DNA of 61,367 nucleotides, the filler included, from an uncultured Thermoplasmatales archaeon (lineage in GTDB: Archaea; Thermoplasmatota; E2; DHVEG-1): the NCBI GenBank assembly GCA_964517155.1. It is 5 parts of 5 records of this genome, joined end to end, with 100 filler letters (N's around TTAATTAATTAA, not from the genome) between each part and the next. Parts side by side here need not be neighbours in the genome. Positions count along the whole stretch, not along the records: positions 1 to 25,883 come from CAZFAZ010000052.1; positions 25,984 to 35,494 come from CAZFAZ010000054.1; positions 35,595 to 43,015 come from CAZFAZ010000058.1; positions 43,116 to 48,808 come from CAZFAZ010000060.1; positions 48,909 to 61,367 come from CAZFAZ010000061.1. The stretch is one strand, 5' to 3'. The translations under genes and the position numbers were made by a program. The notes beneath the pieces are model-generated. The model worked only from the letters and a program-made list of their open reading frames with translations, did no database searches and had not been told where the DNA came from. Below are positions 7,280 to 60,500 of this stretch, one piece after another (position 1 is the stretch's first letter; each line of letters begins with the position of its first letter).

Positions 7280-7760
7280 AAAAGGCTTAAACCAGCCCAT
7301 CCCTGTTCACTCTGCGCGTCATCCAACAGAAGAAAAAACCCTTTTCCAATTGCGTTCATTCTGCGGGTCATAAATTCTCATTATATTTAAACCTGCGTTC
7401 GGTATGCGGGGCATAACCCTTGTTCAATACTCGGGTCATGCCTTGTTCAATATTCGAGTCATACTCAATATAGCCCTCATCCAAAATTTAGAGTATACAT
7501 GACATAGCCCTCATCCAATATTCGAGGCATACTGCCCCATTTTTTACCAAAATATCATCTTTTATTTTTGTTCAGAACTTGAGTCATGCCTCTTTCAAAA
7601 CTCAGTTCATGTGCAATACAAATCTTCGTCTAATATTCTAGTCTTACACGACAGAAACCTGGCCCAAAACTCAGCTCATACACAGTAAAATAGCTTCTAT
7701 CCAAACTCAATTGCTATTCTGTATAATACTTGGGCATACTCTTTGCAATGCTAAAGTCAT
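7280..7760 (-). repeat. Degenerate array of ~13 copies of an 18-bp motif (copy L of a dispersed element)
   Basis: Minus-strand units such as ATGACCCGAGTATTGAAC, ATGACTCGAATATTGAAC, ATGCCCCGCATACCGAAC start at 7760, 7737, 7679, 7645, 7610, 7587, 7530, 7496, 7462, 7439, 7414, 7371, 7322. Confidence 0.85.
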
Positions 7761-7796
7761 GTTATCCAATTTTTTCAATAGACTATAGTATTTTTT

Positions 7797-7845
7797 TGGG
7801 TGTAGGTCGTAAGCCACTTTAGACCAGTGTTTTCTTCTTATTTTT
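7797..7845 (+). repeat. Dispersed direct repeat site 1 (TGGGTGTAGGTCGTAAGC plus extension)
   Basis: 18-bp core 7797-7814; matches site 3 at 43 of 49 nt by my count. Confidence 0.9.
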
Positions 7846-7910
7846 TCAAATTTTTAAAGTTTTAAAGACGGAAGAACATATATAACATATATACTCAATA
7901 TCAAATTAAA

Positions 7911-8033
7911 ATGAAAGGAGATGAATTAGAACTCAGCGAACAAACAAAAAAAGAGATTGCTCAATTTCGTACTGAGTACAAAGCAGGTAAAACTCATTCT
8001 TTTGAAAAAATTAAGAAAATGTTGAAATTATAA
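7911..8033 (+). pseudogene. 40-aa remnant resembling the C-terminal half of an archaeal RelB-like antitoxin
   Basis: MKGDELELSEQTKKEIAQFRTEYKAGKTHSFEKIKKMLKL; no N-terminal DNA-binding part and no toxin follows. Confidence 0.55.
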
Positions 8034-8036
8034 ATA

Positions 8037-8456
8037 TTACCCTTCATCAATAATTTTTTCAATTTGTTTGTAAAATTGTTCAGCATCTTCAATTGCTTGT
8101 TGCGCTTCATAATCAGAAATAAGAAAATCTAATGCATATAGTGTGTTATGGCGATTTCTTCTATATGCATCAAGCTGGTTTGAAAGACTTCTTAACTTGG
8201 GATAAGTTTCACGGATATACGACACTATACATAGATGACTTCTTTCTTTTATTCCGTCTTTGAATAACAATGCTCTTGCAGAATGAAACATAGCAGTATA
8301 AGAACAAAATATGACAAGATTGTTATTCTTTATTTCAAAATTATCTTTTGCATTTTGAATATAATTCAGACTTGTTTCTAAAGATTTTACGGCATATTGT
8401 TTTGAAGGCTTTGTTTTTCTAAGCAAACCTTCTTTAAAGCAATCATTAAGTTTCAC
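8037..8456 (-). CDS. HEPN domain toxin (MNT-HEPN pair)
   Basis: SYTAMFHSARALL, RSH and RRNRHNTLY motifs; overlaps MNT stop. Confidence 0.9.
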   Translation of the reverse strand: MKLNDCFKEGLLRKTKPSKQYAVKSLETSLNYIQNAKDNFEIKNNNLVIFCSYTAMFHSARALLFKDGIKERSHLCIVSYIRETYPKLRSLSNQLDAYRRNRHNTLYALDFLISDYEAQQAIEDAEQFYKQIEKIIDEG

Positions 8457-9019
8457 GGCAATCCACTCCCATACAATACAATATGGTTTCTAACTACTGA
8501 ATCATAGAATATCTTATCCTTTTCTTTTATTTTTTGCCAATCTGAAATTGTTAATATTTGAGGTGATATTATTTTTTTAATTTTACTTTCTAATTTCTGT
8601 ATTGCATTTGTAAATTGTATTTTTTTATTTACAAGTATTAATAGGTCGATATCACTTTTTGAGTCATATTCTCCATTGGCATAAGATCCATATAATATAA
8701 TTGAGATTATTGAATCATCATTTTTTAGAAATTCCTCTGTTAATTTATTTTTTTTGAAGTTTATAATTGTGTTTAAAGTTTTCATTTGTTTTACTATTTC
8801 AGATTCATTATTAAGTTTGTACAAATGAACATTTCCCACAATTTCTTTTTTTAATATGTTATCCTTATGAATATTCTTTAAAAAAACATTTACTGTTCCT
8901 GATCCAATGCCGGTGTTCCTTGAAATCTCTTTCGTATAAAATGAATAGTCAGGATTGTTTAAAAATATCCTTAACAGGTTCCAATCTTTATATTTTTCAA
9001 ACATTTCTTCAATATGCAT
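8453..9019 (-). CDS. wHTH plus minimal nucleotidyltransferase (MNT) antitoxin
   Basis: GS-x10-DID (GSYANGEYDSKSDID); N-terminal HTH (TKEISRNTGIGSGTV). Confidence 0.9.
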   Translation of the reverse strand: MHIEEMFEKYKDWNLLRIFLNNPDYSFYTKEISRNTGIGSGTVNVFLKNIHKDNILKKEIVGNVHLYKLNNESEIVKQMKTLNTIINFKKNKLTEEFLKNDDSIISIILYGSYANGEYDSKSDIDLLILVNKKIQFTNAIQKLESKIKKIISPQILTISDWQKIKEKDKIFYDSVVRNHIVLYGSGLP

Positions 9020-9023
9020 ATTT

Positions 9024-9062
9024 TATAAAACTTTCGTTCTATATATAAAACTTTCGTTCTAT
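9024..9062. promoter_or_regulatory. Tandem 19-bp direct repeat, probable promoter/operator of the MNT-HEPN operon
   Basis: TATAAAACTTTCGTTCTAT at 9024-9042 and 9044-9062, directly upstream of the MNT start. Confidence 0.6.
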
Positions 9063-9089
9063 TAATAAAAAATTAAAGAAGAATGTTGT

Positions 9090-9107
9090 TGGGTGTAGGC
9101 CGTAAGC
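9090..9107 (+). repeat. Dispersed direct repeat site 2 (TGGGTGTAGGCCGTAAGC)
   Basis: Identical to the site 3 core; lies between the two TA operons. Confidence 0.9.
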
Positions 9108-9179
9108 CCCTGTGCAACATGAGAAAAATAAATTTTTCATGAAAGTATACGACAGAAGCAACAAATATGAAATATATGC

Positions 9180-9201
9180 TAGTTACCCTCTTTAGTAACT
9201 A
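9180..9201. promoter_or_regulatory. Inverted repeat, probable AbiEi operator
   Basis: TAGTTAC-N8-GTAACTA upstream of a TTTAAATA box and abiEi. Confidence 0.55.
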
Positions 9202-9238
9202 ACATAAATTTAAATACTGTTTTGTCTTGTCTTTTCAT

Positions 9239-9823
9239 ATGCCTATCATCAAATATAACAATATAATAAAAAAAATTACTAAAAAACCTGTATTTGGTGT
9301 TGATGATCTTGTACATCAAAACATACCGCGACAGTATGCAAAAAAAATCCTCCATGAACTATATAAGTCTTGTAAAATCACTCGCGTTGAACGTGGCAAA
9401 TACACTGTTTTTGATGATATTCTTACTGTAGCAACAAATCTTACACAACCATGTTATGTATCCATGTGGTCTGCACTAAGCATTCATAAATTGACTACAC
9501 AGATACCATTTTCAGTTGAAATTGTGACGACTCGGAAGCGTTTCAACAGAAAAATTATATTTAAAAATACGCCGATTATTTTTTATACCGCACAACCAAA
9601 AATGATGTATGGATATGAAAATATCATCTGGAAAGAACAGATACGAATACCTGTTGCAAAACCAGAAAAAATCATTATTGATGCTTTATACTTTAGAACA
9701 ATATCTTCTGAAGAACTTATAGAACCTATCGCGACGATGGATAAAAAACTCCTTTGCGCATATGCAAAATTGACACAAAATACATATGTTATAAAGACTT
9801 TGGAGAGTTTAGTTACATGCTGA
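9239..9823 (+). CDS. Type IV TA antitoxin, AbiEi family
   Basis: wHTH (ITRVERGKY), YVSMWSALSIHKLTTQIP, VAKPEKIIID; ATG 9239. Confidence 0.88.
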   Translation: MPIIKYNNIIKKITKKPVFGVDDLVHQNIPRQYAKKILHELYKSCKITRVERGKYTVFDDILTVATNLTQPCYVSMWSALSIHKLTTQIPFSVEIVTTRKRFNRKIIFKNTPIIFYTAQPKMMYGYENIIWKEQIRIPVAKPEKIIIDALYFRTISSEELIEPIATMDKKLLCAYAKLTQNTYVIKTLESLVTC

Positions 9824-10542
9824 CATCATCAGAACTAAAAAGCTATGCACATCTGCGTAGAATCAAACTAATAGATCAAGCTTGGAAAGATTACCTGCAG
9901 GATCTCACGCTGCACCTTTTATACAAAAAATATCCTAATATTCTTTTTAGAGGAGGCACCTGCATCTGGAAAGTGATGAAAGGAGACCGTTTTTCAGAGG
10001 ATTTAGATATCAGCCTTCAGAGTATACCTATCAACATTGACAATTATCTTATCAATGAACTCAAACTCTATGGTTTCACCTGCAAGATACTTAAGAAAAA
10101 ACAAACCGCAAACATGTTATTTCTTCACTGCAGTATCACCTCTCCAGCTCATCCACGAGAAATCTCATTATTTATTGAAATTCTTTCATCAAAAACATAC
10201 ATTAAGACAATAAATACTCTCACTTTATACTCACCGTATCCTGACATTCCTCCAATTGAAGTAAATGTGCCAAGCCATGAGGATATCATCGCAGATAAAA
10301 TCTCTGCAATATTACAACGAAATAAGGCTCGTGATGTACATGATCTTTATATCCTTCTTAAACAAGGTGGAATCATTGACCTTGAGTTGATCTTACGAAA
10401 GGCATCTGGATTTACACCAAAAACATTAAGAGAAAAAATCGCTGAGAAAAAAAACATATGGAAAAGCCTTGCACCATTAATAGTAACTAAATTACCATCT
10501 TTGGATGAAGAAATGACTTATATCCTTTCTTTCTTCAGATGA
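9817..10542 (+). CDS. Type IV TA nucleotidyltransferase toxin, AbiEii family
   Basis: FRGGT, RFSEDLD, ADKISA...RNKARDVHDL; ATG 9817 overlaps the abiEi end. Confidence 0.9.
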   Translation: MLTSSELKSYAHLRRIKLIDQAWKDYLQDLTLHLLYKKYPNILFRGGTCIWKVMKGDRFSEDLDISLQSIPINIDNYLINELKLYGFTCKILKKKQTANMLFLHCSITSPAHPREISLFIEILSSKTYIKTINTLTLYSPYPDIPPIEVNVPSHEDIIADKISAILQRNKARDVHDLYILLKQGGIIDLELILRKASGFTPKTLREKIAEKKNIWKSLAPLIVTKLPSLDEEMTYILSFFR

Positions 10543-10588
10543 ATATTTTTTTAATAATATTTGTAAATAATATATTATTTGAAGGTGA

Positions 10589-10637
10589 TGGGTGTAGGCC
10601 GTAAGCTTCTTTAGACTTGTGTTTTCCTCTTATTTTT
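10589..10637 (+). repeat. Dispersed direct repeat site 3
   Basis: TGGGTGTAGGCCGTAAGCTTCTTTAGACTTGTGTTTTCCTCTTATTTTT. Confidence 0.9.
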
Positions 10638-10677
10638 ACTATTTCTAAGCCAAATAAAATATTTATTTTAGTCCTAT

Positions 10678-10896
10678 TTACATTACTTTTTTTACTTTTT
10701 CAGATAGACTTAATTTTATATTTTTTGAAGTTTCTATTTTACTTAAAATATTTGATTTTAAAAGATCATTTACTATTCTATATTTAGTCATATGACTTAG
10801 ATTGTTATCTAGATTAAGTTTTTTGCAGTATACATCAGCTGTTCTTATAACACTTTGAATGCTTTTGCTTAACTTGTCTTTATGTTTTAGAAACAC
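10678..10896 (-). CDS. Small basic hypothetical protein, possibly wHTH-like or 5'-damaged
   Basis: 72-aa Lys-rich ORF; frame stays open ~13 codons upstream of the GTG. Confidence 0.4.
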   Translation of the reverse strand: MFLKHKDKLSKSIQSVIRTADVYCKKLNLDNNLSHMTKYRIVNDLLKSNILSKIETSKNIKLSLSEKVKKVM

Positions 10897-11145
10897 TATC
10901 GTTACAACGCTTGCGTATGTAGAAGACTTCGTTTTACCTTACCCCCATTACAATTTTTTGTATCATATTTGTTATAACAAATGTGATATAATAATGGACA
11001 TGATAAAGTTGTATTTAACGATTATGATTCTTGTTAATCCAAAGTCGATCTATAATAAAAAAATAAGTTGCGTATTTTTTTAACAAATATGCTATATTAA
11101 ATATTTGCACAATACTTAGAAATAAAACAGATTATAACATATTTG

Positions 11146-12015
11146 TTATAAATCTCTTTTCTTAAAAAGTAATGCTGAGAAAGCTAAAAACGCTGTCAAC
11201 CAAACAATAAGAACCAAGGTTAAAATTTGTGTAGAATAAAAGCTTGGATATGAAACCACTAATCCCTGTCCAATACTTGAAACTGATTCAATGTTAATTG
11301 ATACAAGTATATTATATGATGAAAGAGGATTTATCATTTCAACTGCATAATACCAATCAGGAATACCTGCTCCTGCAAATAAAGATTCAAGATTTCCAAC
11401 AGCCATAATTGCAATTCCAAGTGTTATTATACTCCATATCATAGTGAAAAAAAACCATAAAAATATCGAGATTCCCATTGCAGTAGACCTTCGTTTAAAA
11501 AGACTTGAAGCAAACAATCCTAAACTTATAAAAACCATGCCCATAAGAATCGATGATGCTAAAAAAATAAGGTATTCTACTATATTTATCTCACCAACGT
11601 TAATGCCAATGATAATACCAGCTATACCAAAACCTGCAGTAATAGATATTGCTAAAACAAAACTTAGTCCAAGAAACTTTCCAAGAATTATTTCAAATCT
11701 TTTCACAGGTAAAGATAAAAGTGCACTCATCGAGCCGCGCTCAATTTCACCAACAACTGCAGCATAACTAAGCATTAATGCAATAATAGGAATAAGATAC
11801 ATGACCAGAGACATCATACCTGCAATTGTAAAGCCAACAGATTGCCAGCCTTGTCCAAGTGATCCAAAATAAGAAACAATAAGTGTAAGAAATGCAAAAA
11901 CAAAAGTCATAACCAAAAGCCATTTATTTCTGATATTATCCATAATTTCTTTTTTAGCAATTAGAAGAACTGAGCTGGTCGGTAAATATTTTTTAAAAGA
12001 GCTATCTTTATTCAT
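11146..12015 (-). CDS. ABC-2 type permease (NosY-like)
   Basis: Multiple TM helices; GEIERGSMSALLSLPVKRFEIILGKF; ends FKKRDL. Confidence 0.9.
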   Translation of the reverse strand: MNKDSSFKKYLPTSSVLLIAKKEIMDNIRNKWLLVMTFVFAFLTLIVSYFGSLGQGWQSVGFTIAGMMSLVMYLIPIIALMLSYAAVVGEIERGSMSALLSLPVKRFEIILGKFLGLSFVLAISITAGFGIAGIIIGINVGEINIVEYLIFLASSILMGMVFISLGLFASSLFKRRSTAMGISIFLWFFFTMIWSIITLGIAIMAVGNLESLFAGAGIPDWYYAVEMINPLSSYNILVSINIESVSSIGQGLVVSYPSFYSTQILTLVLIVWLTAFLAFSALLFKKRDL

Positions 12016-13083
12016 CTAAGCATCAGCCTCCGTAAAATGCATAAACACATCTTCAAGAGAAGGATCCATTGTATGAATATCTAAAATATTTGCTTTTTTA
12101 TTCAAAAGCGTAAAAATCACTGTTGCTTTAACTTCTTTTTTGCAAAATACATCAAGCGTGTTTCTATATTGCTCAACAGAAGAAACCCCGTCAATTGCTT
12201 TAAGAGCTGTGATAAACTCTTCTTTTACAGATTCTAAAGAAATGATAAGCTTTGGCCTTAACTGCAAACGATTCTGAAGATTAAAAATATCATCCACTGC
12301 AGCAATTACTCCTTTATTGATAATTCCAACGCGATGACAAATCGTTTGGATTTCACTGAGGATATGCGATGAAATAAAAACTGTAGCTCCATGCTCATTT
12401 AATTTTTTAATTTTCTCTCTAACAAATACAACGCCTCGAGGATCAAGACCATTTGACGGCTCATCAAGAATAATAAAAGAAGGATTACCAATAACTGCTC
12501 TTGCCATACCAAGCCTCTGAGTCATACCTTTTGAAAAAGTTCCAACTTTCTGATTTATAGCATCAGCAAGCCCAAATTCTTTTAACAATTCTTTACATTG
12601 AAAGCGATCGGCATGTTTCATCTCAGCATAAAACTCTAGGTTTTGAAGTGCAGTAAGATTTTCATAAAAAGCAACTTTCTCAGGTAAATAACCAATATTT
12701 TTTTTCACATTTTTTTCATCATCAAAAATATTTTGGTTATCAATCAAAATCGTTCCATTATCAGGATACAATAAACCAAGAATAGCTTTTATAGTAGTAG
12801 TTTTACCTGCGCCGTTTGGTCCTAAAAAACCAAATATTTCACCTTTTTTAACTGAAAAAGATGCATTGTTCACTGCTTTTTTTCTGTTAAAAGATTTTGA
12901 GACAGAGTCTACCGACAGCATCAGTGAAGAAGAATCTTTTTTTTCAGATTCTTTTTCATGTGGAAATTGAAAAACACCTTTTGTACTGCAGTTTGAACAA
13001 GTGATAGTAACTGTTTCACCAGGTTTTCCAAAAATTTCTTGTTCGGAGCCGCAAGAAGGACATTTTACTTTTTTTTGATTCAT
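12016..13083 (-). CDS. ABC transporter ATP-binding protein with N-terminal zinc ribbon
   Basis: Walker A GPNGAGKT, signature FSKGM, Walker B IILDEP; N-terminal CPSC...CSNC. Confidence 0.95.
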   Translation of the reverse strand: MNQKKVKCPSCGSEQEIFGKPGETVTITCSNCSTKGVFQFPHEKESEKKDSSSLMLSVDSVSKSFNRKKAVNNASFSVKKGEIFGFLGPNGAGKTTTIKAILGLLYPDNGTILIDNQNIFDDEKNVKKNIGYLPEKVAFYENLTALQNLEFYAEMKHADRFQCKELLKEFGLADAINQKVGTFSKGMTQRLGMARAVIGNPSFIILDEPSNGLDPRGVVFVREKIKKLNEHGATVFISSHILSEIQTICHRVGIINKGVIAAVDDIFNLQNRLQLRPKLIISLESVKEEFITALKAIDGVSSVEQYRNTLDVFCKKEVKATVIFTLLNKKANILDIHTMDPSLEDVFMHFTEADA

Positions 13084-13161
13084 TTGAAATAAAACACCTC
13101 AAGTATTATATCTTGCTTAGAAATACAAAAGTGATATTAATTCTTAACTATCTTGAATTTT

Positions 13162-13902
13162 TTATGATATATATTTTTGTAAAAGTTTGTAAACTTTGTT
13201 TAAATCCTTTTCAAAAATTACAAAATCTGCATATTTTTTTACACAATCATCATCTGGGTTAAATGCAATACTTATGCCTGAAACTTCAAACATTGGTATA
13301 TCAAAACAAGAATTACCAACCGCAGCAATACAGTCAGTACTTATACCTACTTTTTTAGCAAGGCTTTCAACTGCTTCATCTTTTGCTTTAAGTTTCACAC
13401 CAATTATTCCTTCATCTGTTAAAAAACCGTTTTTATCAACACTAAGTCCATTTGAATAAACATAATCAATACCAAGTTTATCACCAACTCTTTCTGCAAG
13501 AATATCAAGACCTGCACTAATAATTGCGGTTTTAACATTTTTTTCTTTTAAAGAAGAAATACATTCTTTTGCACCATTCATTAAAGAAACATCTGAAAGA
13601 ATCTGGACTAATTTTTCTTTTTTTATAGGTTTTGCATTTTCTCGCCATAAAGCTGCGTCTCTTCTAATAAACTCCATATCATCGATTTCGCCTTTTAGAT
13701 ATGCATCAACTGATTTATCATTTGAAGTATTAAAAAAATCATGAACATGTTTCCAAGAGCTGTATGTATCTGTAAGAACGCCGTCCATATCAAATGCTAC
13801 TAGTTTTAGATTTATGTTTTTTTGATTGCTTTTTTGTTTTTTAAAACCTGTTTTTCTGTAGCAATAACTGCATTTTTTAGTAGTCATTTTAGAAAACCGC
13901 AT
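13162..13902 (-). CDS. HAD-IB phosphatase, phosphoserine phosphatase-like
   Basis: FDMDGVL, IISAG; late motif VGNSCFD (Asn for the usual Asp); start uncertain. Confidence 0.85.
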   Translation of the reverse strand: MRFSKMTTKKCSYCYRKTGFKKQKSNQKNINLKLVAFDMDGVLTDTYSSWKHVHDFFNTSNDKSVDAYLKGEIDDMEFIRRDAALWRENAKPIKKEKLVQILSDVSLMNGAKECISSLKEKNVKTAIISAGLDILAERVGDKLGIDYVYSNGLSVDKNGFLTDEGIIGVKLKAKDEAVESLAKKVGISTDCIAAVGNSCFDIPMFEVSGISIAFNPDDDCVKKYADFVIFEKDLNKVYKLLQKYIS

Positions 13903-13984
13903 AAATTAGAATGTATAATAAGTTTTAGAGGAAAAATTTATAATACATAATATATATTAATAATATTAAAGGGGTAAAATAATT

Positions 13985-15424: not shown

Positions 15425-15511
15425 TTTCACAATATTTTTTAGTTTTTGTTACTTTTTGCAATTTTATTTTTTAGTTTTTAGTCGTTTCGTGCCGAAAGTT
15501 TAATTAACTAG

Positions 15512-15540
15512 TTTAACTATAGTAATACTTACTGGTTAAA
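15512..15540. promoter_or_regulatory. Imperfect palindrome, probable AbrB operator
   Basis: TTTAAC..AGTAA-TAC-TTACT..GTTAAA abutting ATG 15541. Confidence 0.55.
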
Positions 15541-15777: not shown

Positions 15778-15780
15778 TTA

Positions 15781-16197: not shown

Positions 16198-16239
16198 TGT
16201 TTTAGTCACTAAATAAAAAGAATTGTTTTTTTTGATCTT

Positions 16240-46988: not shown

Positions 46989-46990
46989 AA

Positions 46991-51636: not shown

Positions 51637-51815
51637 ATCAATTTTCACCTTCATTAGAATCAACTGTGTTTCTAGATGTTAGTGGCGTATCTATCTTAAT
51701 TATAAAACGATATCGGTGAATAATTTTCAAAAAAATATGTGGAGGGAGAGGGGTTTTTAAAAAAAATAAAAATGTTGATGGGATGGGAATATGTAGTTAC
51801 CCCTCTCAATTTTTT

Positions 51816-53984
51816 TTAGTTTAATTCAACAGTATTTATTTCACTTAAATCCTGTAGATTATTAATTTTTACTAAATTGTCTGAAATTGTGTAAAGGACA
51901 TCGTTGATGTAAAGCGTTCTTTTTATTGAATTACCGTAATCTGAATACCAATAATAGTTGTACTCATCATAATTTGTAGTTTCTTCTCCATGCTCAATAA
52001 CTCCTTTGAGTTCTAAGCCACCTTCAAGTGTTATATTAAACACATATGCAGATTGTTTATAGTAGTCTCCAGTGGGTATAACTAAAAGGTTTTTTTCTTT
52101 GTCAAATAAGAAGGCTTTATGCTCACTTAATGCATAAGATTGCCCCCAGCCCCAATCGTTATCATCTTGCTTTATTATGTATTTTGAAAGCTCAACAGGG
52201 TTTTGTACATCGACAACATCAAATAATGATATTTTTATGTTATTGTTTTCCATTCCTATGCCTATTATATGTGTGCTATCGTATGGGTGAAGATATGTTG
52301 AATAACCTGGTATTTTTAGCTCTCCTAAAACTTCAGGGTTTCTTGGGTCTGATAAATCTATTACAAAGAAGGGATCTATCTCTCTGAAGGTTACTAGATA
52401 GCATTTATCAATTAAGAATCTTGTAGCATATATTGTTTCACCTGGTGCAAGACCTTCAAGTTTACCTATGATTTCTAAATCCATATCTAAAACATATATG
52501 TTGTTTTGTGTTTCTATAAACGAGTTAAGTATACTTCTAAACATCCATCCCTGTGTTGTTGATGATACTCTGAGTATTCCATTCCATTCGCTTAACGAGA
52601 ACTGGTTGCTTACTTGACCTGGAACCTGGCCTTGTGATTCATAAGTTATTTCACCGTCTTTTATAGCTATTCTATGTATTGTTGTTCTTTCAAATTGCAA
52701 TATTAGTTCTCTATGTAAATACATTTTTTCTTCTTCTGTTAAAGAGTTTGTAAAGTTTTGAAGTATCCATTCTGTTACAGTTTTTTTCTGATATTCATTT
52801 AATGTAGCAAAAGATTTAATTTGCTCAATTTCAGATTTGTAGTTATCTGGTAAAAGGGGTGTTAAAACTTCTTGAATTGTTGTCTGAAGTAAATTATAAT
52901 CATAATTGCTACTGTAGTATGTTATGTATATGTTTTCTTTTGAAACATATAAAACTTGGCTGTTTCCCAGAAGATATATTTTTGCATTAATCTCTTGCTC
53001 GTCATCATGAACATTTACTGATACGATATTTGTTAAAGTTTTACTTTCTTTAAGGATATCAACATAAATGATATCATCAAGAGCTATATCTTGAACTTCG
53101 TTGTTTATCATAATTCTTGGGATAATTGAATAATTTTCATCTAAGTTATAAAGCTCATAAGAATATTGGTTTGTAATTAAATATACAAAATCACCTATTA
53201 ATCTTGATCCTGAGAAATGACCTGGAACTACAACATTTTTGACTTCTTCAGGATTGTTTAAATCTTGTAAATCATAAACAAGTATATGGGTTTCAGGTGA
53301 GCTGTACCATATAACAGGTGATACAATATCATCTGTTATTTTTTCTATTTCATTTGAATCTTCATCTGTTACAGAGTCGTCTACACTGATAGGTTGAATA
53401 AAAACTGGTTCATCATATAGTATTGGATAATTATAATTATTACAAAAAATAACAAGTCTGTCGCCGCTTATAAAAATATTAATAATACTATGTGAACTAT
53501 CAACTGTTATCTCAGATATAATCTCTGCGTCATCTGCAGGATTTGCCTTTACAATAATTACTTTGTTATTAGATACAATATAAAGATATATTCCATCTGT
53601 TTTTACAATATCTGGCTCATCAACACCTGCGACTTGAACATTAGTCTGAGAGTAGTCAACAAGCTCTCCACCTTCTTTTGATATAGAACTTAAAAGATCA
53701 AAGTTGGAAAAATCAGCATCAATGCTTTCCGAATCAATACCAAGACGCATACCGCTGGTAAGCATACCTGAACTAGGCCAATAATAACTGGTTTGACTGG
53801 TTTCTTTTAAAAATCTTGTAAATTCATTATAAGAACTAAAAGTTTTAAGATCAGAATATTTAGGAATAAAATTAACAGATTCACCTGTTACAACAGGCTG
53901 CATATTCATACTATATACAAAACTAACAATTATTATAATGCTTGCAAGAAACAATCCGCTTATTTTCAAATTTTTATCATTCAT
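51816..53984 (-). CDS. Secreted beta-propeller domain protein
   Basis: YSQTNVQVAGVDEPDIVKTDG, NQFSLSE, GELKIPGYSTYLHP. Confidence 0.9.
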   Translation of the reverse strand: MNDKNLKISGLFLASIIIIVSFVYSMNMQPVVTGESVNFIPKYSDLKTFSSYNEFTRFLKETSQTSYYWPSSGMLTSGMRLGIDSESIDADFSNFDLLSSISKEGGELVDYSQTNVQVAGVDEPDIVKTDGIYLYIVSNNKVIIVKANPADDAEIISEITVDSSHSIINIFISGDRLVIFCNNYNYPILYDEPVFIQPISVDDSVTDEDSNEIEKITDDIVSPVIWYSSPETHILVYDLQDLNNPEEVKNVVVPGHFSGSRLIGDFVYLITNQYSYELYNLDENYSIIPRIMINNEVQDIALDDIIYVDILKESKTLTNIVSVNVHDDEQEINAKIYLLGNSQVLYVSKENIYITYYSSNYDYNLLQTTIQEVLTPLLPDNYKSEIEQIKSFATLNEYQKKTVTEWILQNFTNSLTEEEKMYLHRELILQFERTTIHRIAIKDGEITYESQGQVPGQVSNQFSLSEWNGILRVSSTTQGWMFRSILNSFIETQNNIYVLDMDLEIIGKLEGLAPGETIYATRFLIDKCYLVTFREIDPFFVIDLSDPRNPEVLGELKIPGYSTYLHPYDSTHIIGIGMENNNIKISLFDVVDVQNPVELSKYIIKQDDNDWGWGQSYALSEHKAFLFDKEKNLLVIPTGDYYKQSAYVFNITLEGGLELKGVIEHGEETTNYDEYNYYWYSDYGNSIKRTLYINDVLYTISDNLVKINNLQDLSEINTVELN

Positions 53985-54264
53985 TTTTTTATCACACCTT
54001 TTTTAACCTGTATTTTATGATTATATCTGTTTTGCTTTATATATAGTTTGAAAACGTTTGGGAAAAACCGAACGAAAATCCTAATAGAGAGTACAATAAT
54101 TATATGATATTATTTATTTTTAAATTTTTATTAATACTTTCAATGATCCCTATAACAGATATATAAATGACAAAAACATCTAATTTTTAGAGTTCCTTAG
54201 AAAAATATTAATATTTGAACATAACATACATAATATACGTAATAAACGTAAAAGGTGATAAAAA

Positions 54265-54489
54265 ATGGTTAGCATGACATTAGCAATCCCAAAAGAATTG
54301 AAAAAAGACATGGAACTCTACCCTGAAATAAATTGGTCAGAAGTTGCAAGAGCCGCAATTAAAAGAAAGATACAAATCTTAAAAGAGATGAATAGACTTC
54401 TTGCAAATAGTACATTTACCGAAGAAGACGCAATAATATTCGGTCATAAAGTAACAAAGAAAGTTGCAAAAAAATTTGAGAGAGTATGA
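54265..54489 (+). CDS. RHH-type antitoxin
   Basis: MTLAIPKELKKDM...EINWSEVAR; upstream of PIN gene. Confidence 0.85.
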   Translation: MVSMTLAIPKELKKDMELYPEINWSEVARAAIKRKIQILKEMNRLLANSTFTEEDAIIFGHKVTKKVAKKFERV

Positions 54490-54492
54490 TGA

Positions 54493-54903
54493 ATGGATCT
54501 AGTTATTGATGCAAATATATTATTTTCAGCTTTAATAAAAAATGGAAAAACAAGAGAGCTTATGCTATTTGATAGACTTAAATTATATAGTGCAGAATAT
54601 TTATTCGAGGAATTTGAAAAACATTTTAATGAAATTAAGTTAAAAACTAATGTAGATACTATTGAATTAAAAGATATCTTAGAATTGTTAATTTTAGAAT
54701 CAAACATCACAATTATAACTATGCAAGATATTAAACCTTTTAAAGAAACAGCAAAGAAAATATCTCCAGATCCAAAAGATGCTTTCTATTTTGCAGTAGC
54801 TTTAAAATTAAATTGTGCTATTTGGTCTAACGATAAGAGATTAAAGAACCAAAAATATGTAAAAGTTTATTCGACATCTGAACTTATACAAATTTTAAAA
54901 TGA
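54493..54903 (+). CDS. PIN-domain toxin
   Basis: VIDANILFSAL, PDPKD, IWSNDKRL. Confidence 0.9.
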   Translation: MDLVIDANILFSALIKNGKTRELMLFDRLKLYSAEYLFEEFEKHFNEIKLKTNVDTIELKDILELLILESNITIITMQDIKPFKETAKKISPDPKDAFYFAVALKLNCAIWSNDKRLKNQKYVKVYSTSELIQILK

Positions 54904-54911
54904 AAATTATT

Positions 54912-56237
54912 TTAGATCGCTTTAATTTCTTCCTTAAATTTAATACCAATTCCTTCAAGTTCATCAAGAATTGGATTATAAATCTGGGGAATAACTGGTA
55001 TATGCACCCCTGTGATATTTATTTTACCTGAAAGTATCATTTTAACTGCAATTGCTGCAGGTATACTAACCGTTCTTGCAACAGATGAATCATCACCAAG
55101 AATTCCATAATCAACCAATGTTGAAGTAATATATTCTTTTTTAGAAGGATATTTGGCAACAAACTCATGATGCATAACAATCATATCTCGCTCATTTTCA
55201 CCAAGTATCATCTTTTTTAGTGTTAAAACATTTAGATAATCAAGCGGGTTATCTTTATCAGATGGTAGTTTTTCATCGCTAAATAATCCAAGCCACTCAA
55301 GTCTTTTAATAACAGTTGAATAAGGTTTAAGACCTAAAAATTTAGCAGTTACCTTAACTAATTCATCATTTGGCTTGGCATCAACTAATTTTTTTGTTAC
55401 ATCAGCATATGTTTTACCTTCAAAATTTTTCAAAGGCTCTTCAGACAACCAGCCAAGTGCTACAACATTTCTCATGGTTTCACACCAACCAGTCATGCGA
55501 AATGTTCCACGATAAACAGTATTTGCATCTTTAAGACCATATATTTCTTTATACGGCACAGAGTTGCGGTTAGGATAATTTTCAAAACTTCCAACACCGG
55601 GTACATCCTGTATGTAATAGTTTTCAAAAAGTTCTTCACCAGGATACTCTTTTATTTTACCATCTTCAAGCCATCTAGAAGGATTTTTAGATGCCAAAAG
55701 TACACCTCGGGGCGCCCAAGAAAACTTATAGCCAAAAGGATTATTGTTTACTTCATAAGAGGGAAGTGCACCAGTGGATGATTTAAAATTTGTAACCTTA
55801 CCGCCTTTTTCCTCAACCTCATGTATAACCCGCATAGCACTCATATGATCAATACCTGGGTCAAGACCGCATTCGTTAAGAATTAAGATACCAGCATTTT
55901 TTGCAATTTTATCAAGTTCTTTCATTGCATCTGATACATAAGATGTTGTAACCATAGGTTTTTTGTGTTTAATACAGTACACTGCAACTTTAACATGATA
56001 TGTATAAGGCAGAAGACTTACAGCAATATCTGATTCAGATACCAACTTTTCAAGCAATTTATCGTCTTTAACATCAAGTTTTACTGCTTTGCCTCTTGGA
56101 TTTTTTGCAATTATCTTTTCTACTTTTTCAACTGTTCTACTAGCCATTACTACATTAAAATCGGTTTTTTTAAAAAAATATTTAATCATTGGTCTTGAGA
56201 CCATTCCTGCGCCAAGAACCAAAACTGTTTTTGTCAA
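54912..56237 (-). CDS. Saccharopine dehydrogenase (glutamate-forming type)
   Basis: VLGAGMVS, VTTSYVS, ECGLDPGIDH, YKFSWAPRG, YPNRNS; TTG start 56237. Confidence 0.92.
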   Translation of the reverse strand: MTKTVLVLGAGMVSRPMIKYFFKKTDFNVVMASRTVEKVEKIIAKNPRGKAVKLDVKDDKLLEKLVSESDIAVSLLPYTYHVKVAVYCIKHKKPMVTTSYVSDAMKELDKIAKNAGILILNECGLDPGIDHMSAMRVIHEVEEKGGKVTNFKSSTGALPSYEVNNNPFGYKFSWAPRGVLLASKNPSRWLEDGKIKEYPGEELFENYYIQDVPGVGSFENYPNRNSVPYKEIYGLKDANTVYRGTFRMTGWCETMRNVVALGWLSEEPLKNFEGKTYADVTKKLVDAKPNDELVKVTAKFLGLKPYSTVIKRLEWLGLFSDEKLPSDKDNPLDYLNVLTLKKMILGENERDMIVMHHEFVAKYPSKKEYITSTLVDYGILGDDSSVARTVSIPAAIAVKMILSGKINITGVHIPVIPQIYNPILDELEGIGIKFKEEIKAI

Positions 56238-56302
56238 AATTTTCTTACCCCCCTGTAATTTAATTATGCATATCATTTTCAAGCCGGGGAAAAGAAAATT
56301 GG

Positions 56303-57601
56303 CTATAAATATTTACTGATATATTGATAATCAGGTGTCAGTTTACCCTGATGTAAAATAACTGCTTTTTTTATTTCAGCAGGTAAATCTAAGCTTTCAA
56401 AAGTTGATTTGTAATCTGCTTTAACAATATTTGGAACAAAATTTATAAGTGAATCGCTAAAAGCAGTTGATGACTCGCGTGGTAGCTCACAAGGCAGGTT
56501 ATCAACAGACATTACAACAACCCCGCTTCCCTTATATCCATCGATTATATCATCTCTTATAGGATTGTAGATAAATACCGGATTTCCCGGTGTTGTGATT
56601 TTTTCTGTAAATTCTATTGCACCGTTTACATCAACACTTATATCACCTACAGCCTGCAGCTTCATTTCACCGGTGTAGTTTTCCTCTAAAAATTCTTTTG
56701 TTATAAGCCTAGGATAACGTTCATCCCAATATATACAATTCATAAGAATAGATAGTTTTCTGATATATTTATGAAATATACTTCTGTAAAGATGAGGTTT
56801 ATTGTAATATTCTGAAAGATTAAACATTACTTCATTTGATACAGGCTCAACCATGTCTTCTTCCTTAAATACTACTTTGTAGATTACTTTATCAGAATAG
56901 TTTTCATGGATTGCCTCAAGTTGACGTGGGCCTATTTCTTCAACAGGCAGCATATCAAGTATTTCTTGAGCACCTTTTGAAACATTACCATATCCTGCAA
57001 AACCAACAACAATTGGTGCAAGAAAATCAGGGATTGTCTCTTGCTGTATTTTTTTTCCGATTTCTCGCAGATGCTTTTTTGCTTCATCAAGACTGCTGTA
57101 GTTCATCGTTTGTTTAATTTCACTGAGAGGTGTTTCTATTCCTCGCCATTTAACATGTTGGCCAAAAGCCCATAGTGTATCTATCATACCTGCAAGACCT
57201 GCGTATCTGCCAAAAAACACTAAACGACGGTTTTTATCATCTGTTATTTTTTCATAATCAATAAGTGTGCAACTTTGTTTCATCATATGTTTTAACATTG
57301 GCATGTTTTTTTCTTGACCTTTTATGACATGAGCAAAAAAAACATATGTTTTGTTTTTTTCAAAAAAATCAATTGGCATTTCTTTTACTGCAAAAACTAC
57401 ATTTGCATCTTTTAGGTTTTCATCAACTTTTGCACCTATTTCTTCGTATTCTTCATCATGAAAAGTTCTTATTTTTGACGGCTGAATTATAGTATTTATA
57501 TCATGTTTTTCTTTTAATTTTTTAACATGCTCAGGAATAATTGGTACTCTTTTTTCCCAGATGTTTTTATCTTCCCTTCTTATACCAAGTGTAAAGCTCA
57601 T
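56303..57601 (-). CDS. Lysine-ketoglutarate reductase-like (AlaDH/PNT fold)
   Basis: GIRREDKNIWEKRVP, LIDYE, FGRYAGLAG, GYGNVSKGA, DISVD, VDNLPCELPRESS. Confidence 0.9.
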   Translation of the reverse strand: MSFTLGIRREDKNIWEKRVPIIPEHVKKLKEKHDINTIIQPSKIRTFHDEEYEEIGAKVDENLKDANVVFAVKEMPIDFFEKNKTYVFFAHVIKGQEKNMPMLKHMMKQSCTLIDYEKITDDKNRRLVFFGRYAGLAGMIDTLWAFGQHVKWRGIETPLSEIKQTMNYSSLDEAKKHLREIGKKIQQETIPDFLAPIVVGFAGYGNVSKGAQEILDMLPVEEIGPRQLEAIHENYSDKVIYKVVFKEEDMVEPVSNEVMFNLSEYYNKPHLYRSIFHKYIRKLSILMNCIYWDERYPRLITKEFLEENYTGEMKLQAVGDISVDVNGAIEFTEKITTPGNPVFIYNPIRDDIIDGYKGSGVVVMSVDNLPCELPRESSTAFSDSLINFVPNIVKADYKSTFESLDLPAEIKKAVILHQGKLTPDYQYISKYL

Positions 57602-57671
57602 GAGGATAAAACCTCCTATATCTTAGGCCTTCATCTAGTTTGGTTTTAAAAATGTTATCTAATAAAAAAAA

Positions 57672-58082
57672 TTACTTTTTGATTTGTTTAAGATATTCGT
57701 CAGATTTCATAATTTTTATTAATTTATATTTGTAATTCAAGAGATCCTTGTCCCCCGTGATAATATATTTACACTTTGTAGCTTTGGCGCATGCAATTAC
57801 ATGTGCATCATATTTATCTCTTAAACTCTCAAAAGTCTTAATTTCCTTTTCGTAAATCTTCCTTTTAATAACTTCCATTTCAGATGTTTTTATGAATTTT
57901 TCAAACATGTGTAGATACTCTGGAAATTTTTTCATAAAAACTCGGGTTGCTTCTTGCATTATGTGTTCTGAAATGTAAATCTTATCTCCTTCACTTATAC
58001 AGCGGATTATCAATTCTAATTCTTTTTTATCAAATACAATTGCAGAGATTATTATGTTTGTATCTATAAATATTCTATTCAT
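57672..58082 (-). CDS. PIN-domain toxin
   Basis: IFIDTNIIISA, RDKYD, ITGDKDLL; TAATG coupling to the antitoxin. Confidence 0.9.
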   Translation of the reverse strand: MNRIFIDTNIIISAIVFDKKELELIIRCISEGDKIYISEHIMQEATRVFMKKFPEYLHMFEKFIKTSEMEVIKRKIYEKEIKTFESLRDKYDAHVIACAKATKCKYIITGDKDLLNYKYKLIKIMKSDEYLKQIKK

Positions 58083-58333
58083 TAAGTCCAAACTTCTTTA
58101 CGAGATTCAAAAATGACTTTTTCGATTTCTTTTTTTGTAATCTTTTTATCTTTGGCACTTTTCTGGATTATATCACTTATCTCTTTTAGTTTTAATCCAA
58201 CTTTTTTCATAATGATATAATCTCCGATTATATCTACTGCAATATATGTATCTTTATTTATATGCAATTTTTTTCTTACATGTGAAGGTAATGTTACCTG
58301 ACCTTTGCTAGTTACTTTTATTACTTCTGTCAT
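58082..58333 (-). CDS. AbrB/MazE-family antitoxin
   Basis: KVTSKGQVTLPSHVRKKL. Confidence 0.92.
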   Translation of the reverse strand: MTEVIKVTSKGQVTLPSHVRKKLHINKDTYIAVDIIGDYIIMKKVGLKLKEISDIIQKSAKDKKITKKEIEKVIFESRKEVWT

Positions 58334-58349
58334 ACAACACCATATTAAT

Positions 58350-58364
58350 GTAAGAATTCCTTAC
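58350..58364. promoter_or_regulatory. Palindromic AbrB operator candidate
   Basis: GTAAG-AATTC-CTTAC between a TTTATAAA box and the start codon. Confidence 0.6.
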
Positions 58365-58488
58365 TATTTATAAATTGTGCTAACACAATATAATAAAAAT
58401 AGCAAAATACGTCTCATAAAAAATTACTTTTAATAAACCCCCAACAACTAATAAATAACTAAAAAATGGTTAGGTTTTTTTATATCTT

Positions 58489-58761
58489 ATGAAAAATGAG
58501 GAAAAGATAGATAAAAATACTGTTATCTCTGCATCAGAGATAGGGCAATACTATTATTGCTCAATTGCGTGGCATCTTCAGAGAAAGGGTTTTAAACCAG
58601 AGTCTGAACTGCTTGAAAAAGGCCAGAAAAAACATGATGAATTAGGTAGGCTGATAAATAGAACTGAGAAAAAAATGGTAAAATCAAGGATACTTGCGGT
58701 GATGGGCTATATAATTTTATTTTTTAGTATTTTAATATTTATTTTTGAGGTGATTTTATAG
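58489..58761 (+). CDS. N-terminal half of a split Cas4-like nuclease, C-terminal TM helix
   Basis: ISASEIGQYYYC...GQKKH then ILAVMGYIILFFSILIFIFEVIL. Confidence 0.8.
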   Translation: MKNEEKIDKNTVISASEIGQYYYCSIAWHLQRKGFKPESELLEKGQKKHDELGRLINRTEKKMVKSRILAVMGYIILFFSILIFIFEVIL

Positions 58762-58769
58762 AAAAAATC

Positions 58770-59288
58770 ATGATTTTAAGTTTACTTATTATTTTTTCAA
58801 TTTTTTTGATTATACTCTCTAAAATTTTAAAAAATAAAGCTGAAAAAATTAGGAAGAAGAATAAAATTCAATCTGGTAAAATTACATATTCTGATATTCA
58901 TAGAATTGAACATGCCTTATTTTCAAAAAAATACATGATAGCAGGTAAACCAGATTATGTTGTTGAAAGAAAAGGATGCAGGATACCTGTTGAATTAAAA
59001 ACTGGATGCAGCAGTCGTCCTAAAAGCAATCATATCTATCAGCTTGCAGCATATTGTCATTTACTTGAGGAAAACTATGGTGCTTTTGTACCCTACGGAA
59101 TTCTTGTGTATAACAACTCTTGCGAATACAAGATACCTTTTGACCCAAAAATTCGTTTTGAGTTGGAAAATACAATTAAAAAGATGAGATATAGCATAAG
59201 AACAGGAAATATTACGTTAAATCATGATGATCCTCAAAGATGTATTGTATGCTCAATGAAAAATCATTGCGATAAAAAAATAATTTGA
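58770..59288 (+). CDS. C-terminal half of a split Cas4-like (PD-(D/E)xK) nuclease, N-terminal TM helix
   Basis: GKPDY, PVELKTG, QLAAY, CIVCSMKNHC. Confidence 0.88.
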   Translation: MILSLLIIFSIFLIILSKILKNKAEKIRKKNKIQSGKITYSDIHRIEHALFSKKYMIAGKPDYVVERKGCRIPVELKTGCSSRPKSNHIYQLAAYCHLLEENYGAFVPYGILVYNNSCEYKIPFDPKIRFELENTIKKMRYSIRTGNITLNHDDPQRCIVCSMKNHCDKKII

Positions 59289-59361
59289 TTTGTATTTTTT
59301 TAACAAATTTTATAAGTACTTATTTTATTACATAATATTGACCGTGGAGGCGGTTATTAGT

Positions 59362-59577
59362 ATGGGAGAGGATTTAACATTTCAAGATGGAATATTATTA
59401 TGTAAATATATCTATCAAAGTGCGATTGATAAAACACTTAATGGCGTAATTGAGCAAGAAGAAATATTTTACAAAGCCCATGATATGCTAAATAAAATTG
59501 ATAAAGGTTTTTCCAATGAGCGCCTTGAGCAATTACTTTATATGCTTAATATGGAAAAACTTTATGCAAAAATGTAA
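59362..59577 (+). CDS. Hypothetical protein
   Basis: GGAGG upstream of ATG 59362; 71 aa. Confidence 0.65.
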   Translation: MGEDLTFQDGILLCKYIYQSAIDKTLNGVIEQEEIFYKAHDMLNKIDKGFSNERLEQLLYMLNMEKLYAKM

Positions 59578-59581
59578 AAAA

Positions 59582-59776
59582 TTATTTTTTACCAATCATT
59601 TCAAATGCTTCATTTAGAAATGCTCTTTCTTCAGGTGTTGGTGACCAGCTAAAACCATCTTCTTCTTTTGTAAAATTTGGAGCAGTTTGATCAAATTTTG
59701 CAAGAAGGCTGAGTTTTCCAGTACTAGGATTGCGGCTTATCTCAAGTTTAATATGAATATTCTGGTTTTTATTCAT
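59582..59776 (-). CDS. Small hypothetical protein
   Basis: 64 aa, GAGGA RBS. Confidence 0.7.
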   Translation of the reverse strand: MNKNQNIHIKLEISRNPSTGKLSLLAKFDQTAPNFTKEEDGFSWSPTPEERAFLNEAFEMIGKK

Positions 59777-59999
59777 TTTTTATTCCTCTTTTCCACCTTT
59801 GTTTTTTAAAAGTAATTAGATTTGTTAGTATTATATTTTTTCATTTGTTTTGTGTTATAATGATAGATTTTATATGTAACTTATTTATATCAATTTGATT
59901 AGGAGAGATTATAAAACTATAAGGGTTGATTAATATGCAGGATGGCTCCATTGTAATTAAATTATTTAGAAATGGTCTTGAAAAGGGACCTGAGTATAA

Positions 60000-60500
60000 A
60001 GTTACTGTGTATGATAGTGGCCGGAGATATACTAGTTTTTTGAAATATGGAGGTTACGGCTTTTAGAGACGAAATATCGCCGAATCTGAACAGCGACATG
60101 CCGCGGATCCTGAAAATGAACCATGCCGCGAATACTGAACGACGGTCTTTATAGGATGAGATTTTATGCCGCAGAGATTGAATGCCATTGATGCATGCTT
60201 TTTGCCGCATGGATCGAATGATATTGATGATGCACGATATTTTGCTTTCTACGTAAGAAAACGCTTGTTGATATGCCGCGCTGTCTGAATAGCATTGATG
60301 CGGTTGTTATGCCGCACATGCTGAATGGCGATGCGGAAATTAAATATATTGCGCTAACGTAATGCCATTGATGCTGATGTTATGCCGCGCTGACTGAATG
60401 GCGTTGTGGATTTTCAAGGATTGCAATTTCTTCATGCCATTGATATATGTCTCATACCGCGCAGATCGAATGTCGATGAAAGGGTTTTAGGCTTTATTTT
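60000..60500 (+). repeat. Degenerate array of the same 18-bp motif with ~36-bp period (copy R of the dispersed element)
   Basis: ATGCCGC-N6-TGAA(C/T)-type units start at 60074, 60098, 60123, 60166, 60202, 60273, 60309, 60346, 60382, 60454. Confidence 0.88.

Follow-up and report, generated by a model that had tools for sequence, protein, structure and literature searches.

We propose that the repeat array found twice in the window, a stretch of 61,367 nucleotides joined from five records of an uncultured Thermoplasmatales archaeon, is the single working end of a mobile element that uses a RecB-type nuclease, a reading in which we infer binding, cutting and movement alike and to which we give a probability of roughly 55%. 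The pairing of array and nuclease likely marks an undescribed kind of jumping DNA, and it is small, amounting to 315 aa and about 150 bp. Known transposases work by DDE, HUH, serine, tyrosine or Cas1 chemistry, and RecB-type nucleases are not known to have any strand-transfer chemistry. If our reading is true, a RecB/Cas4-type nuclease with dispersed sites of its own would give uncultured archaea one more way of acquiring and reshuffling toxin-antitoxin (TA) and defence cassettes, and it would explain a widespread protein family whose members now bear the wrong name of IS1 transposase or just that of 'PD-(D/E)XK domain protein'.

Arrays in the window and in related genomes

Both arrays consist of 18-bp direct units around a TATA-like box, all on one strand. 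Copy A lies on contig C52 and copy B on contig C61, with these features (window coordinates):

7281..7688, minus strand: array copy A, 18-bp direct units, ending about 20-25 nt past the last unit in a T-run
7679, 7645, 7610, 7587, 7530, 7496, 7462, 7439, 7414, 7371 and 7322, minus strand: unit starts of copy A, the last four units spaced 25/43/49
7384..7391, minus strand: TATA-like A/T box at offset +24 of the core unit, within the 43-bp interval
8037..8456, minus strand: HEPN gene (Pfam HEPN, E 4e-14), cargo on the inner side of copy A
8453..9019, minus strand: minimal nucleotidyltransferase gene (Pfam Polbeta and NTP_transf_2), partner of the HEPN gene
9227..10542, plus strand: AbiEi-like and AbiEii gene pair (Pfam AbiEii, E 9e-21; AbiEi_4 weak, E 0.015), belonging to the same 3.7-kb island as the HEPN/nucleotidyltransferase cargo
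60002..60014, plus strand: 13-mer matching the 5' edge of copy A exactly
60098..60495, plus strand: array copy B, of the 36-bp-period subtype
60098, 60123, 60166, 60273, 60309, 60382 and 60454, plus strand: unit starts of copy B, spaced 25, 43, 107, 36, 73 and 72
60146..60153, plus strand: degenerate A/T box, offset as in copy A, from sequence and alignment

The first-pass annotation had proposed that the two copies are homologous, and this is borne out against a composition-matched null: the reverse complement of 7414-7347 in copy A aligns ungapped with 60123-60190 in copy B at 50 of 68 positions, and the local score of 46 is attained by 0 of 1000 dinucleotide shuffles (mean 20.5, sd 2.4, max 31). 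The common unit spacing of 25 then 43, the alignment of the last units (28/42 identical), the exact shared 13-mer (7688-7676 on the minus strand, 60002-60014 on the plus strand) and the location on different contigs were likewise recovered as it had described them, and a genome-wide nhmmer search links the two copies (E 1.4e-7 and 1.8e-6). Its view that the copies expanded different parts of one array probably does not hold, since each has closer relatives than the other. Copy A is nearest to five further arrays of its own genome (74-81% over 90-360 nt) and copy B to arrays from other genomes (71-73% over 79-113 nt), so that copy B is probably a separate acquisition and not a sister of copy A with another part expanded.

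The search of this and related genomes that the annotation had suggested places both copies in a larger family. There are eight arrays in this 1.6-Mb genome, the window copies being two of them, and a profile search finds arrays in 39 of 108 genomes of the family. A BLAST-type search with each window copy reached 2/60 and 2/107 other genomes, with one chance coding-region match, and a profile was therefore needed. Base spacing is more strictly kept than sequence: within this genome's family the spacings are fixed at 25, 43, 36 or 49, and in 56 arrays the commonest are 25 (73 times), 43/44 (60), 36 (34) and 23/24 (29). Periods vary inside one array, and the intervals are homologous between loci, not unique as in CRISPR/TIGR-type guide arrays, which also have one period. 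In keeping with their first description as unrecognised, the arrays match no Rfam family: over the window only two tRNAs elsewhere were found, and at E<=1 over four array loci nothing besides one chance miRNA match outside the array.

A candidate nuclease partner of the arrays

The suggestion that the arrays are a dispersed multi-site protein-binding DNA element is supported and gains a candidate partner protein. Its gene, which is absent from the window, encodes an intact nuclease of the RecB/Cas4 family to which an IS1-type zinc ribbon and an HTH are fused. The IS1/IS1595 zinc domain (NF050000) is found in 57 of 58 homologs, Cas4 in 40 and RecB-like in 47, and in this genome NF050000 has two matches only, both of them nuclease genes. 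The transpos_IS1 profile is matched at positions 1-81 of 199 only, below the cut-off, and it is because of this N-terminal match alone that some homologs carry the database label 'IS1 family transposase', others being labelled 'PD-(D/E)XK domain protein'. No DDE catalytic domain was found, whether in frame or after a frameshift; the protein's second half is a nuclease of RecB/Cas4 type, with the motifs E, D, DxK and QxxxY on a RecB fold. Residues E224, H241, D243, D256, K258, Q270 and Y274 are retained in 136-137 of 137 proteins, and four more cysteines are conserved in 89, 71, 71 and 127 of them. The fold matches a DinG-fused nuclease (Z 8.5, rmsd 3.5, 123 aligned), MGME1, Cas4 and AddA, all in a middling Z range of 6-8.5. 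A longer DDE- or helicase-fused form was not found among 3308 candidates, which hold just 3 longer homologs, none with a DDE family listed, and which make weak evidence on this point. Near copy B, at 58489-59288, a split Cas4-like gene had looked like a partner; it was rejected as a host gene, which G001 and G002 also have but with no array beside it.

The gene is patchy, occurring in 27 of 107 family genomes, in 0 of 90 others in the class and in two other archaeal phyla (8/401 and 4/61). A literature search, largely of open-access main texts, found no paper on this gene-array pair.

Arrays stand downstream of the gene in direct orientation at 41 of 157 loci, a count that includes the 25 downstream regions on which the matrix was trained, and at 37 of 68 loci at >=42% identity. 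Downstream-inverted arrays occur at 0/157 loci, upstream-inverted ones at 6/134 and upstream-direct ones at 2/134; the units therefore nearly always read away from the gene. No locus has both an upstream-inverted and a downstream-direct array. Among distant homologs (<42% identity), 85 of 89 are without a downstream array by this matrix, and a search with model R1 had no match in five distant genomes where the nuclease gene stands with divergent arrays. By genome, gene and array co-occur at 16/29 vs 23/79 (p 0.023), a value to be read with the kinship of these genomes and the use of some of them in training the model. Strong arrays (E<1e-8) occur in 25 genomes, and 12 of these, G088 among them, have no nuclease match.

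Protein and array also seem to vary together. When all protein columns were set against the 18 unit bases at 46 loci, the top pair was residue 19, in the zinc-ribbon hairpin, with base 2 (MI 0.93, corrected 0.56; next-best pair 0.38). At 60 loci, six of them with hand-picked upstream arrays, K or R at residue 19 accompanies G at base 3 in 44/45, and any other residue accompanies C in 13/15; G at base 2 goes with K in 24/33 and with R in 0/12. With kinship counted the link is not significant: of 4 and 6 independent pairs, 3.4 and 3.7 are concordant and none opposite, which gives median p values of 0.25 and 0.125; with a stricter detector blind to bases 1-3, 27/142 loci remain and no more than 1 and 3 pairs. 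Within this genome an AGG-type array accompanies the K19 gene of C2, and ATG-type arrays accompany the R19 genes, that of C91, at 2359-3306 of its contig, and that of C7. The units are very probably cognate sites that the nuclease protein would bind.

Insertions, cargo and competing readings

The proximity to TA modules that had been reported stands as a one-sided one: TA cargo sits on the inner side of the arrays. On C2, a cassette between nuclease gene and array matches 9066-8037 at 82% identity across 1030 nt, and in run X4 one contig links 7005 to 10708 with 219 other letters between, skipping the window island. At C36, 1.3 kb of cargo and array face 147 bp in G002, and at C91 3.3 kb stand in place of a DUF211 gene found in G001, G002, G068 and G018; whole insertions span 1.3-3.7 kb. 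Orphan arrays recur as near-identical pairs, in G088 (95.7% over 421 nt, starting exactly at the first unit in unrelated flanks) and in G018 (94% over 121 nt). Past the last unit, homology stops at +24, +24, +32, +10 and +5 nt in some pairs and runs to +122 and +223 in others, so the outer edge is not sharp. No second, inverted end was seen at any examined locus, and no consistent target duplication: in 9 arrays the longest edge-shared word is 4-7 bp at scattered distances, and the two 7-bp words were read as chance. Four contig sets, which cannot show absence, held no circle joint at C91. Arrays occupy the same two host sites in different genera, which fits old inheritance with losses or repeated insertion alike. 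Homing with co-converted flanks was considered at C36 and C91, where the flanks resemble genus g34 more than the genus to which this genome belongs; an empty g34 site shows the same likeness, and the flanks are therefore not evidence for homing.

In our model several copies of the protein would load on the phased units, the zinc-ribbon hairpin contacting bases 1-3 and the HTH the 3' half, which is conserved. The A/T box would be bent or opened by a host factor, for instance TBP, and the nuclease would cut near the array. The array would be pasted by host repair at A/T-rich intergenic sites, along with a stretch of inner-side DNA that varies in length and may hold TA cassettes or even the nuclease gene, or be absent altogether. 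On this model the two window copies, as relics or non-autonomous copies, would depend on R19-type proteins of C91/C7 acting in trans. More tentatively, and at somewhat less than even odds, this may be a single-ended mobile element of a new class: a DNA-reading module derived from IS1, joined to a RecB/Cas4 nuclease, would assemble on a phased array around a TBP box and move array and TA cargo without DDE, HUH, serine or tyrosine chemistry, and the hairpin residue would set the array type, giving a natural reprogrammable site-directed nuclease.

The anatomy of the array also lends itself to an operator-flanked promoter, through which the protein would control the outward transcript and restrain a selfish or defensive nuclease, orphans being relics of transferred islands minus the gene. 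The TATA-like box, at a match of at least 7/8, lies at one exact offset in 32 of 41 arrays (at most 4/41 at any other tested offset) with units on both sides, the first outer gene runs in the direction of the array in 26/39 cases (p 0.053), and TA genes are neighbours. We nonetheless consider this reading unlikely: the array is mostly behind the stop codon, pointing away from the gene, and therefore has no way to repress the promoter of that gene, the spacing is retained without the box in the subclade of L062, L091 and L101, and near-identical orphans in unrelated flanks have the first unit as their exact start.

Less probable still are arrays serving as self-markers or decoy sinks that hold the nuclease off the host genome or mark DNA to spare, as in a restriction-like defence or addiction system. 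Intact nuclease motifs, defence-type neighbours and several arrays per genome are compatible with this reading, yet a 1.6-Mb genome cannot be marked by eight arrays, the 27 lone units elsewhere reach only low scores of at most 15.6 bits, a sink needs neither strict spacing nor one-way orientation, and PADLOC matches the Cas4-like domain only.

Iteron origins and parC sites are generally built of phased direct repeats about an A/T-rich box, a plan that the array shares. A replication origin or partition site of an integrated plasmid or virus is very improbable, however, given that the protein has no match in viral contigs, plasmids or phages, that 89 scanned neighbours hold no replication, partition or integrase family, and that the insertions are merely 1.3-3.7 kb.

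The least credible reading is a repetitive ncRNA gene, such as a type III antitoxin or guide array, for which copy A offers a T-run and one terminator-like hairpin at its 3' end and some units able to pair with the following seven bases, whereas RNAalifold gave 0 consensus pairs in 21 array cores, single-strand folding z-scores are unremarkable (-1.44 and +0.51), the hairpins seen by eye in copy A fail in other lineages, and the Rfam result, the homologous spacers and the strictness of spacing over sequence all speak against it. The first-pass alternative of a repetitive ncRNA is thus not supported as far as a structured RNA is meant, with neither covarying pairs nor an Rfam family.

Comparison with known systems

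An array acting as the single working end of a nuclease-served element shares features with several known systems. The partner protein is like IS1/IS1595 in its N-terminal InsA-type zinc finger and HTH, which according to PMC12428005 bind the IS1 ends. Unlike IS1/IS1595, the array system has no DDE domain, no paired terminal inverted repeats and no consistent 8-9 bp target duplication, and the C91 insertion replaces a gene.

As in RAYT/REPIN systems (PMC3337134), a nuclease gene stands beside short repeats, here probably cognate ones, with more copies scattered in intergenic DNA, and there are several gene-repeat types per genome with signs of co-evolution. According to PMC3337134, RAYTs are HUH/tyrosine enzymes whereas the array partner is of RecB/Cas4 type, REPINs are inverted doublets of palindromes whereas the array units are direct, non-palindromic and phased, and the array system differs further in having cargo genes and a patchy rather than vertically kept gene. 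The arrays flank the enzyme gene and occur dispersed, but the protein is no HUH/tyrosine transposase, and units on one strand with 0 consensus pairs form no palindromic inverted-doublet hairpins.

IS91/ISCR elements transpose by a one-ended rolling-circle route, in which a fixed end lies downstream of the enzyme gene and the opposite side varies and captures neighbouring genes; the arrays may have a similar layout. The partner protein differs in lacking an HUH motif or catalytic tyrosine fold, and the fixed end would here be a multi-site array with a less sharp outer edge, near +24 nt in several pairs and from +5 to +223 overall. Tn7 and Mu ends hold several transposase sites and a host-factor site, and the arrays resemble them in their several spaced direct sites with an A/T-rich interval; they differ in that only one end was found, with no DDE partner, no conserved terminal dinucleotide and no consistently linked TnsC-like ATPase.

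Finally, Cas4-like nucleases fused to Cas1 and to UvrD helicases are described in passages of PMC5704561 on solo Cas4 and pfam12705 proteins, which mention neither an InsA-type DNA-binding fusion nor a cognate DNA array. With these proteins the partner nuclease shares its fold, its catalytic motifs and its mobile and defence contexts.

Two related arrays and their family

Five contigs make up the window. The arrays named in the first-pass annotation as homologous elements on separate contigs (copy A on C52, copy B on C61) are indeed related. The 50 of 68 identical positions were confirmed exactly (score 46 vs a mean of 20.5 and a maximum of 31 in 1000 shuffles), the last units align at 28 of 42 positions, and the exact 13-mer is present in both copies.

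7281..7688, minus strand: copy A, array of 18-bp direct units
60098..60495, plus strand: copy B, array of 18-bp direct units
3..6866, minus strand: reading frame, 2288 codons or longer, that runs off the contig; secreted protein with long internal repeats
57672..58333: AbrB-PIN pair, an array-less insertion missing from the corresponding site of the relative G001
58489..59288: Cas4-like gene broken into two frames; found also in the relatives G001 and G002, there followed by ABCE1

BLAST and nhmmer located five further copies in this genome, on contigs C18, C36, C40, C91 and C7. A unit-matrix scan gave seven clusters of 6-9 units with weak singletons elsewhere, and a broader matrix (329 matches) raised the number of arrays to eight, the sole addition being the C2 array, whose units are of a different type. 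The last four 18-bp units are spaced 25, 43 and 49 in all five complete A-type arrays; across 56 arrays the recurring spacings are 25 (73 times), 43/44 (60), 36 (34) and 23/24 (29), those of the tail being multiples of 36. Copy B, most closely related to arrays of other genomes, shares the 25-43 core and continues in multiples of 36 bp. In 32 of 41 arrays a TATA-like box lies at core-unit offset +24; other offsets reach at most four arrays each. One subclade shares the unit spacing and has no box. Spacing that is fixed while the sequence is free to vary suggests that proteins bind these sites as double-stranded DNA.

Window 9066-8037 is 82% identical over 1030 nt to the nucleotidyltransferase-HEPN pair that separates nuclease gene and array on C2, so copy A represents the C2 layout minus the nuclease. 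One contig of sequencing run X4 bypasses window 7005-10708, that is, the array and both toxin-antitoxin pairs. In runs X1 and X2 the contigs of greatest depth deviate from the window at seven places, at 10588 and 11212-11242, possibly an assembly difference. Copies A and B are two orphan members, with no nuclease gene beside them, of a gene-array system.

The partner nuclease gene and its coupling to the array

The route to the partner gene was a weak array match in the relative G030, directly 3' of a gene resembling those before the C91 and C7 arrays. In its 315-aa product a nuclease domain is joined to a zinc ribbon of IS1/IS1595 type and an HTH; the structure of the product is predicted confidently (pLDDT 89). 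Foldseek returned no match below E 0.001, RecB-family nucleases ranking highest; in a wide structure search the top match was a DinG-fused nuclease (Z 8.5, rmsd 3.5, 123 aligned), ahead of MGME1, Cas4 and AddA, and the HTH part matched domains of transposases and of Myb (Z 5-7). These Z values, obtained from a predicted model, are middling, yet agree with the sequence profiles. The nuclease domain is of the RecB/Cas4 family, its catalytic residues conserved in 136-137 of 137 full-length proteins. A DDE domain was sought in the gene family and not found, and the genome has no IS1-type zinc domain besides those of the nuclease genes. Named homologs occur in Thermoplasmatota, DPANN archaea and several bacterial phyla, with a patchy distribution: 27 of 107 family genomes and none of 90 others of the class have the gene, and in two further phyla it turned up in 8 of 401 and 4 of 61. 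Stop codons interrupt several copies.

Among 191 distinct loci, the array lies downstream with direct units in 41 of the 157 with sufficient downstream DNA and downstream-inverted in none; where upstream DNA sufficed (134), it is upstream-inverted in six and upstream-direct in two. Since 25 of those downstream regions served to train the matrix, there is some circularity in the first count, though not in the upstream-inverted cases. A de novo search of seven hand-chosen loci gave more upstream-inverted arrays, of divergent type, and no locus combines an upstream-inverted with a downstream-direct array. The first unit frequently abuts the nuclease stop codon; otherwise 1-2.8 kb of cargo intervenes. 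Below 42% identity a downstream array was detected with this matrix in just 4 of 89 loci, and the remainder may have divergent arrays or none.

Three kinds of locus stand apart. A fourth, distant homolog (L063, G000:C84:182-474, and L035) has S at residue 19 and, upstream and inverted, repeats of its own whose unit type differs and is not found again in the genome. One distant clade (L118, L185, L189, L192, L194, L199, L326) has, in place of an array, a conserved gene of 150-170 aa directly 3' of the nuclease gene, presumably resembling the four-helix-bundle proteins of intervening sequences. At L069 six same-strand array clusters, 0.3-2.3 kb apart and separated by toxin-antitoxin and small regulator genes, with a duplicated HTH gene, surround one nuclease gene, which looks like tandem accretion of cassettes.

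Protein and unit also appear to covary. Residue 19, on the first strand of the predicted zinc-ribbon hairpin, forms with base 2 the top pair among all protein columns and the 18 bases (46 loci). In a tally of 60 loci, six of them added by hand, base 3 is G with K/R at residue 19 in 44/45 and C with other residues in 13/15, the three exceptions being one failed register, one alignment gap and one alanine; base 2 is G with K in 24/33 and with R in 0/12. On the tree, five changes of the non-basic state are seen. Independent pairs (4 and 6; median p 0.25 and 0.125) all run in the same direction or show no difference, and with detection made blind to bases 1-3, 27/142 loci were retained, with 1 and 3 such pairs. 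The association is suggestive and falls short of proof. According to PMC12428005, InsA binds IS1 ends through the same two domains, zinc finger and HTH.

Distribution, neighbours and signs of movement

With a sequence-only model, 39 of the 108 family genomes prove to carry arrays; matches below 1e-8 occur in 25, 12 of them without a nuclease match. Genome G088 holds two orphan arrays, 95.7% identical over 421 nt, which start at the first unit within unrelated flanks, and G018 a pair sharing 121 nt. On C36, cargo and array take up 1.3 kb at a site that spans 147 bp in G002, and G035, of another genus, holds array and same cargo gene at the identical site. On C91 the place of a DUF211 gene, retained by G001, G002, G068 and G018, is taken by ATPase, nuclease and array; G018 carries an array of different type directly behind that gene. 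The C18, C40 and C61 arrays sit where gene order departs from G001 and G002. The outer homology edge falls at about +24 nt after the last unit, within a T-run, in several pairs (overall +5 to +223), and no consistent target duplication was found in nine arrays. About 12 of 182 loci have fragments of the nuclease-gene 3' end or of array repeat nearby in direct orientation, which suggests repeated events at one spot. At L208, L190, L126, L175, L192 and L131 the last 60-250 nt of the gene reappear, decayed, 0.5-4.6 kb downstream with cargo between.

The proposed adjacency to toxin-antitoxin modules held for inner neighbours (19 of 50 at E<=1e-5, the 50 hand-picked from 73) and failed for outer ones (2 of 39 at E<=1e-8, a third passing at a looser limit). 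Genes on the outer side frequently encode surface proteins.

Three observations concern the flanks. Host genes around the C36 and C91 loci (L334, L333) are 79-91% identical to genus g34 vs 67-80% to their own genus, the NAC gene being unlike, and the genome looks mosaic. At L333:3866-4127 (G000:C91) a non-coding leader of 200-260 nt, 73-91% identical in G001, G002, G018, G035, G068 and L090 and without an Rfam match, precedes a large surface-protein gene and is a candidate leader RNA or regulatory region. Past the C18 array (L336, G000:C18:10626-22700) lie a truncated radC and a series of defence-like genes, one of them a 1192-aa frame of restriction-modification type, all labelled by eye.

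A model for the array and its relation to known systems

We regard as established that the array exists with this geometry, that it is coupled to the gene in a set orientation, that the nuclease motifs are intact, and that there are filled and empty sites and orphan twins. The model that we favour, with a probability of roughly 0.55, is that the array marks a single-ended mobile element: the nuclease protein would bind the units, TBP may take part at the array, the protein would then cut DNA, and host repair would paste the element in. Three things weaken it most: the outer edge is blurred, strand-transfer chemistry is lacking, and the orphan twins sit in G088, where no nuclease was found (genome 88% complete). 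A regulatory operator-promoter is the less likely alternative, although the two are compatible, as a mobile end could contain the box as a promoter. We consider a self-marker or sink improbable and an origin more so. Least probable is an RNA, a conserved fold having been sought in the arrays and found absent; a search of the array against Rfam likewise gave no family match.

The gene-array system is real and widespread, and apparently undescribed. The zinc-ribbon/HTH-nuclease fusion goes unmentioned in the accessible parts of PMC5704561 and PMC4158269. Our literature search, of partial coverage and confined to main texts, found no description of the pair. IS91 moves by one-ended transposition, which the gene-array layout resembles. 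The system departs from RAYT/REPIN and IS1 in the enzyme and ends that define them, and from IS91 in the enzyme and in a less sharp outer edge; in organisation its closest likeness, judged from the portion of PMC3337134 available, is RAYT/REPIN.
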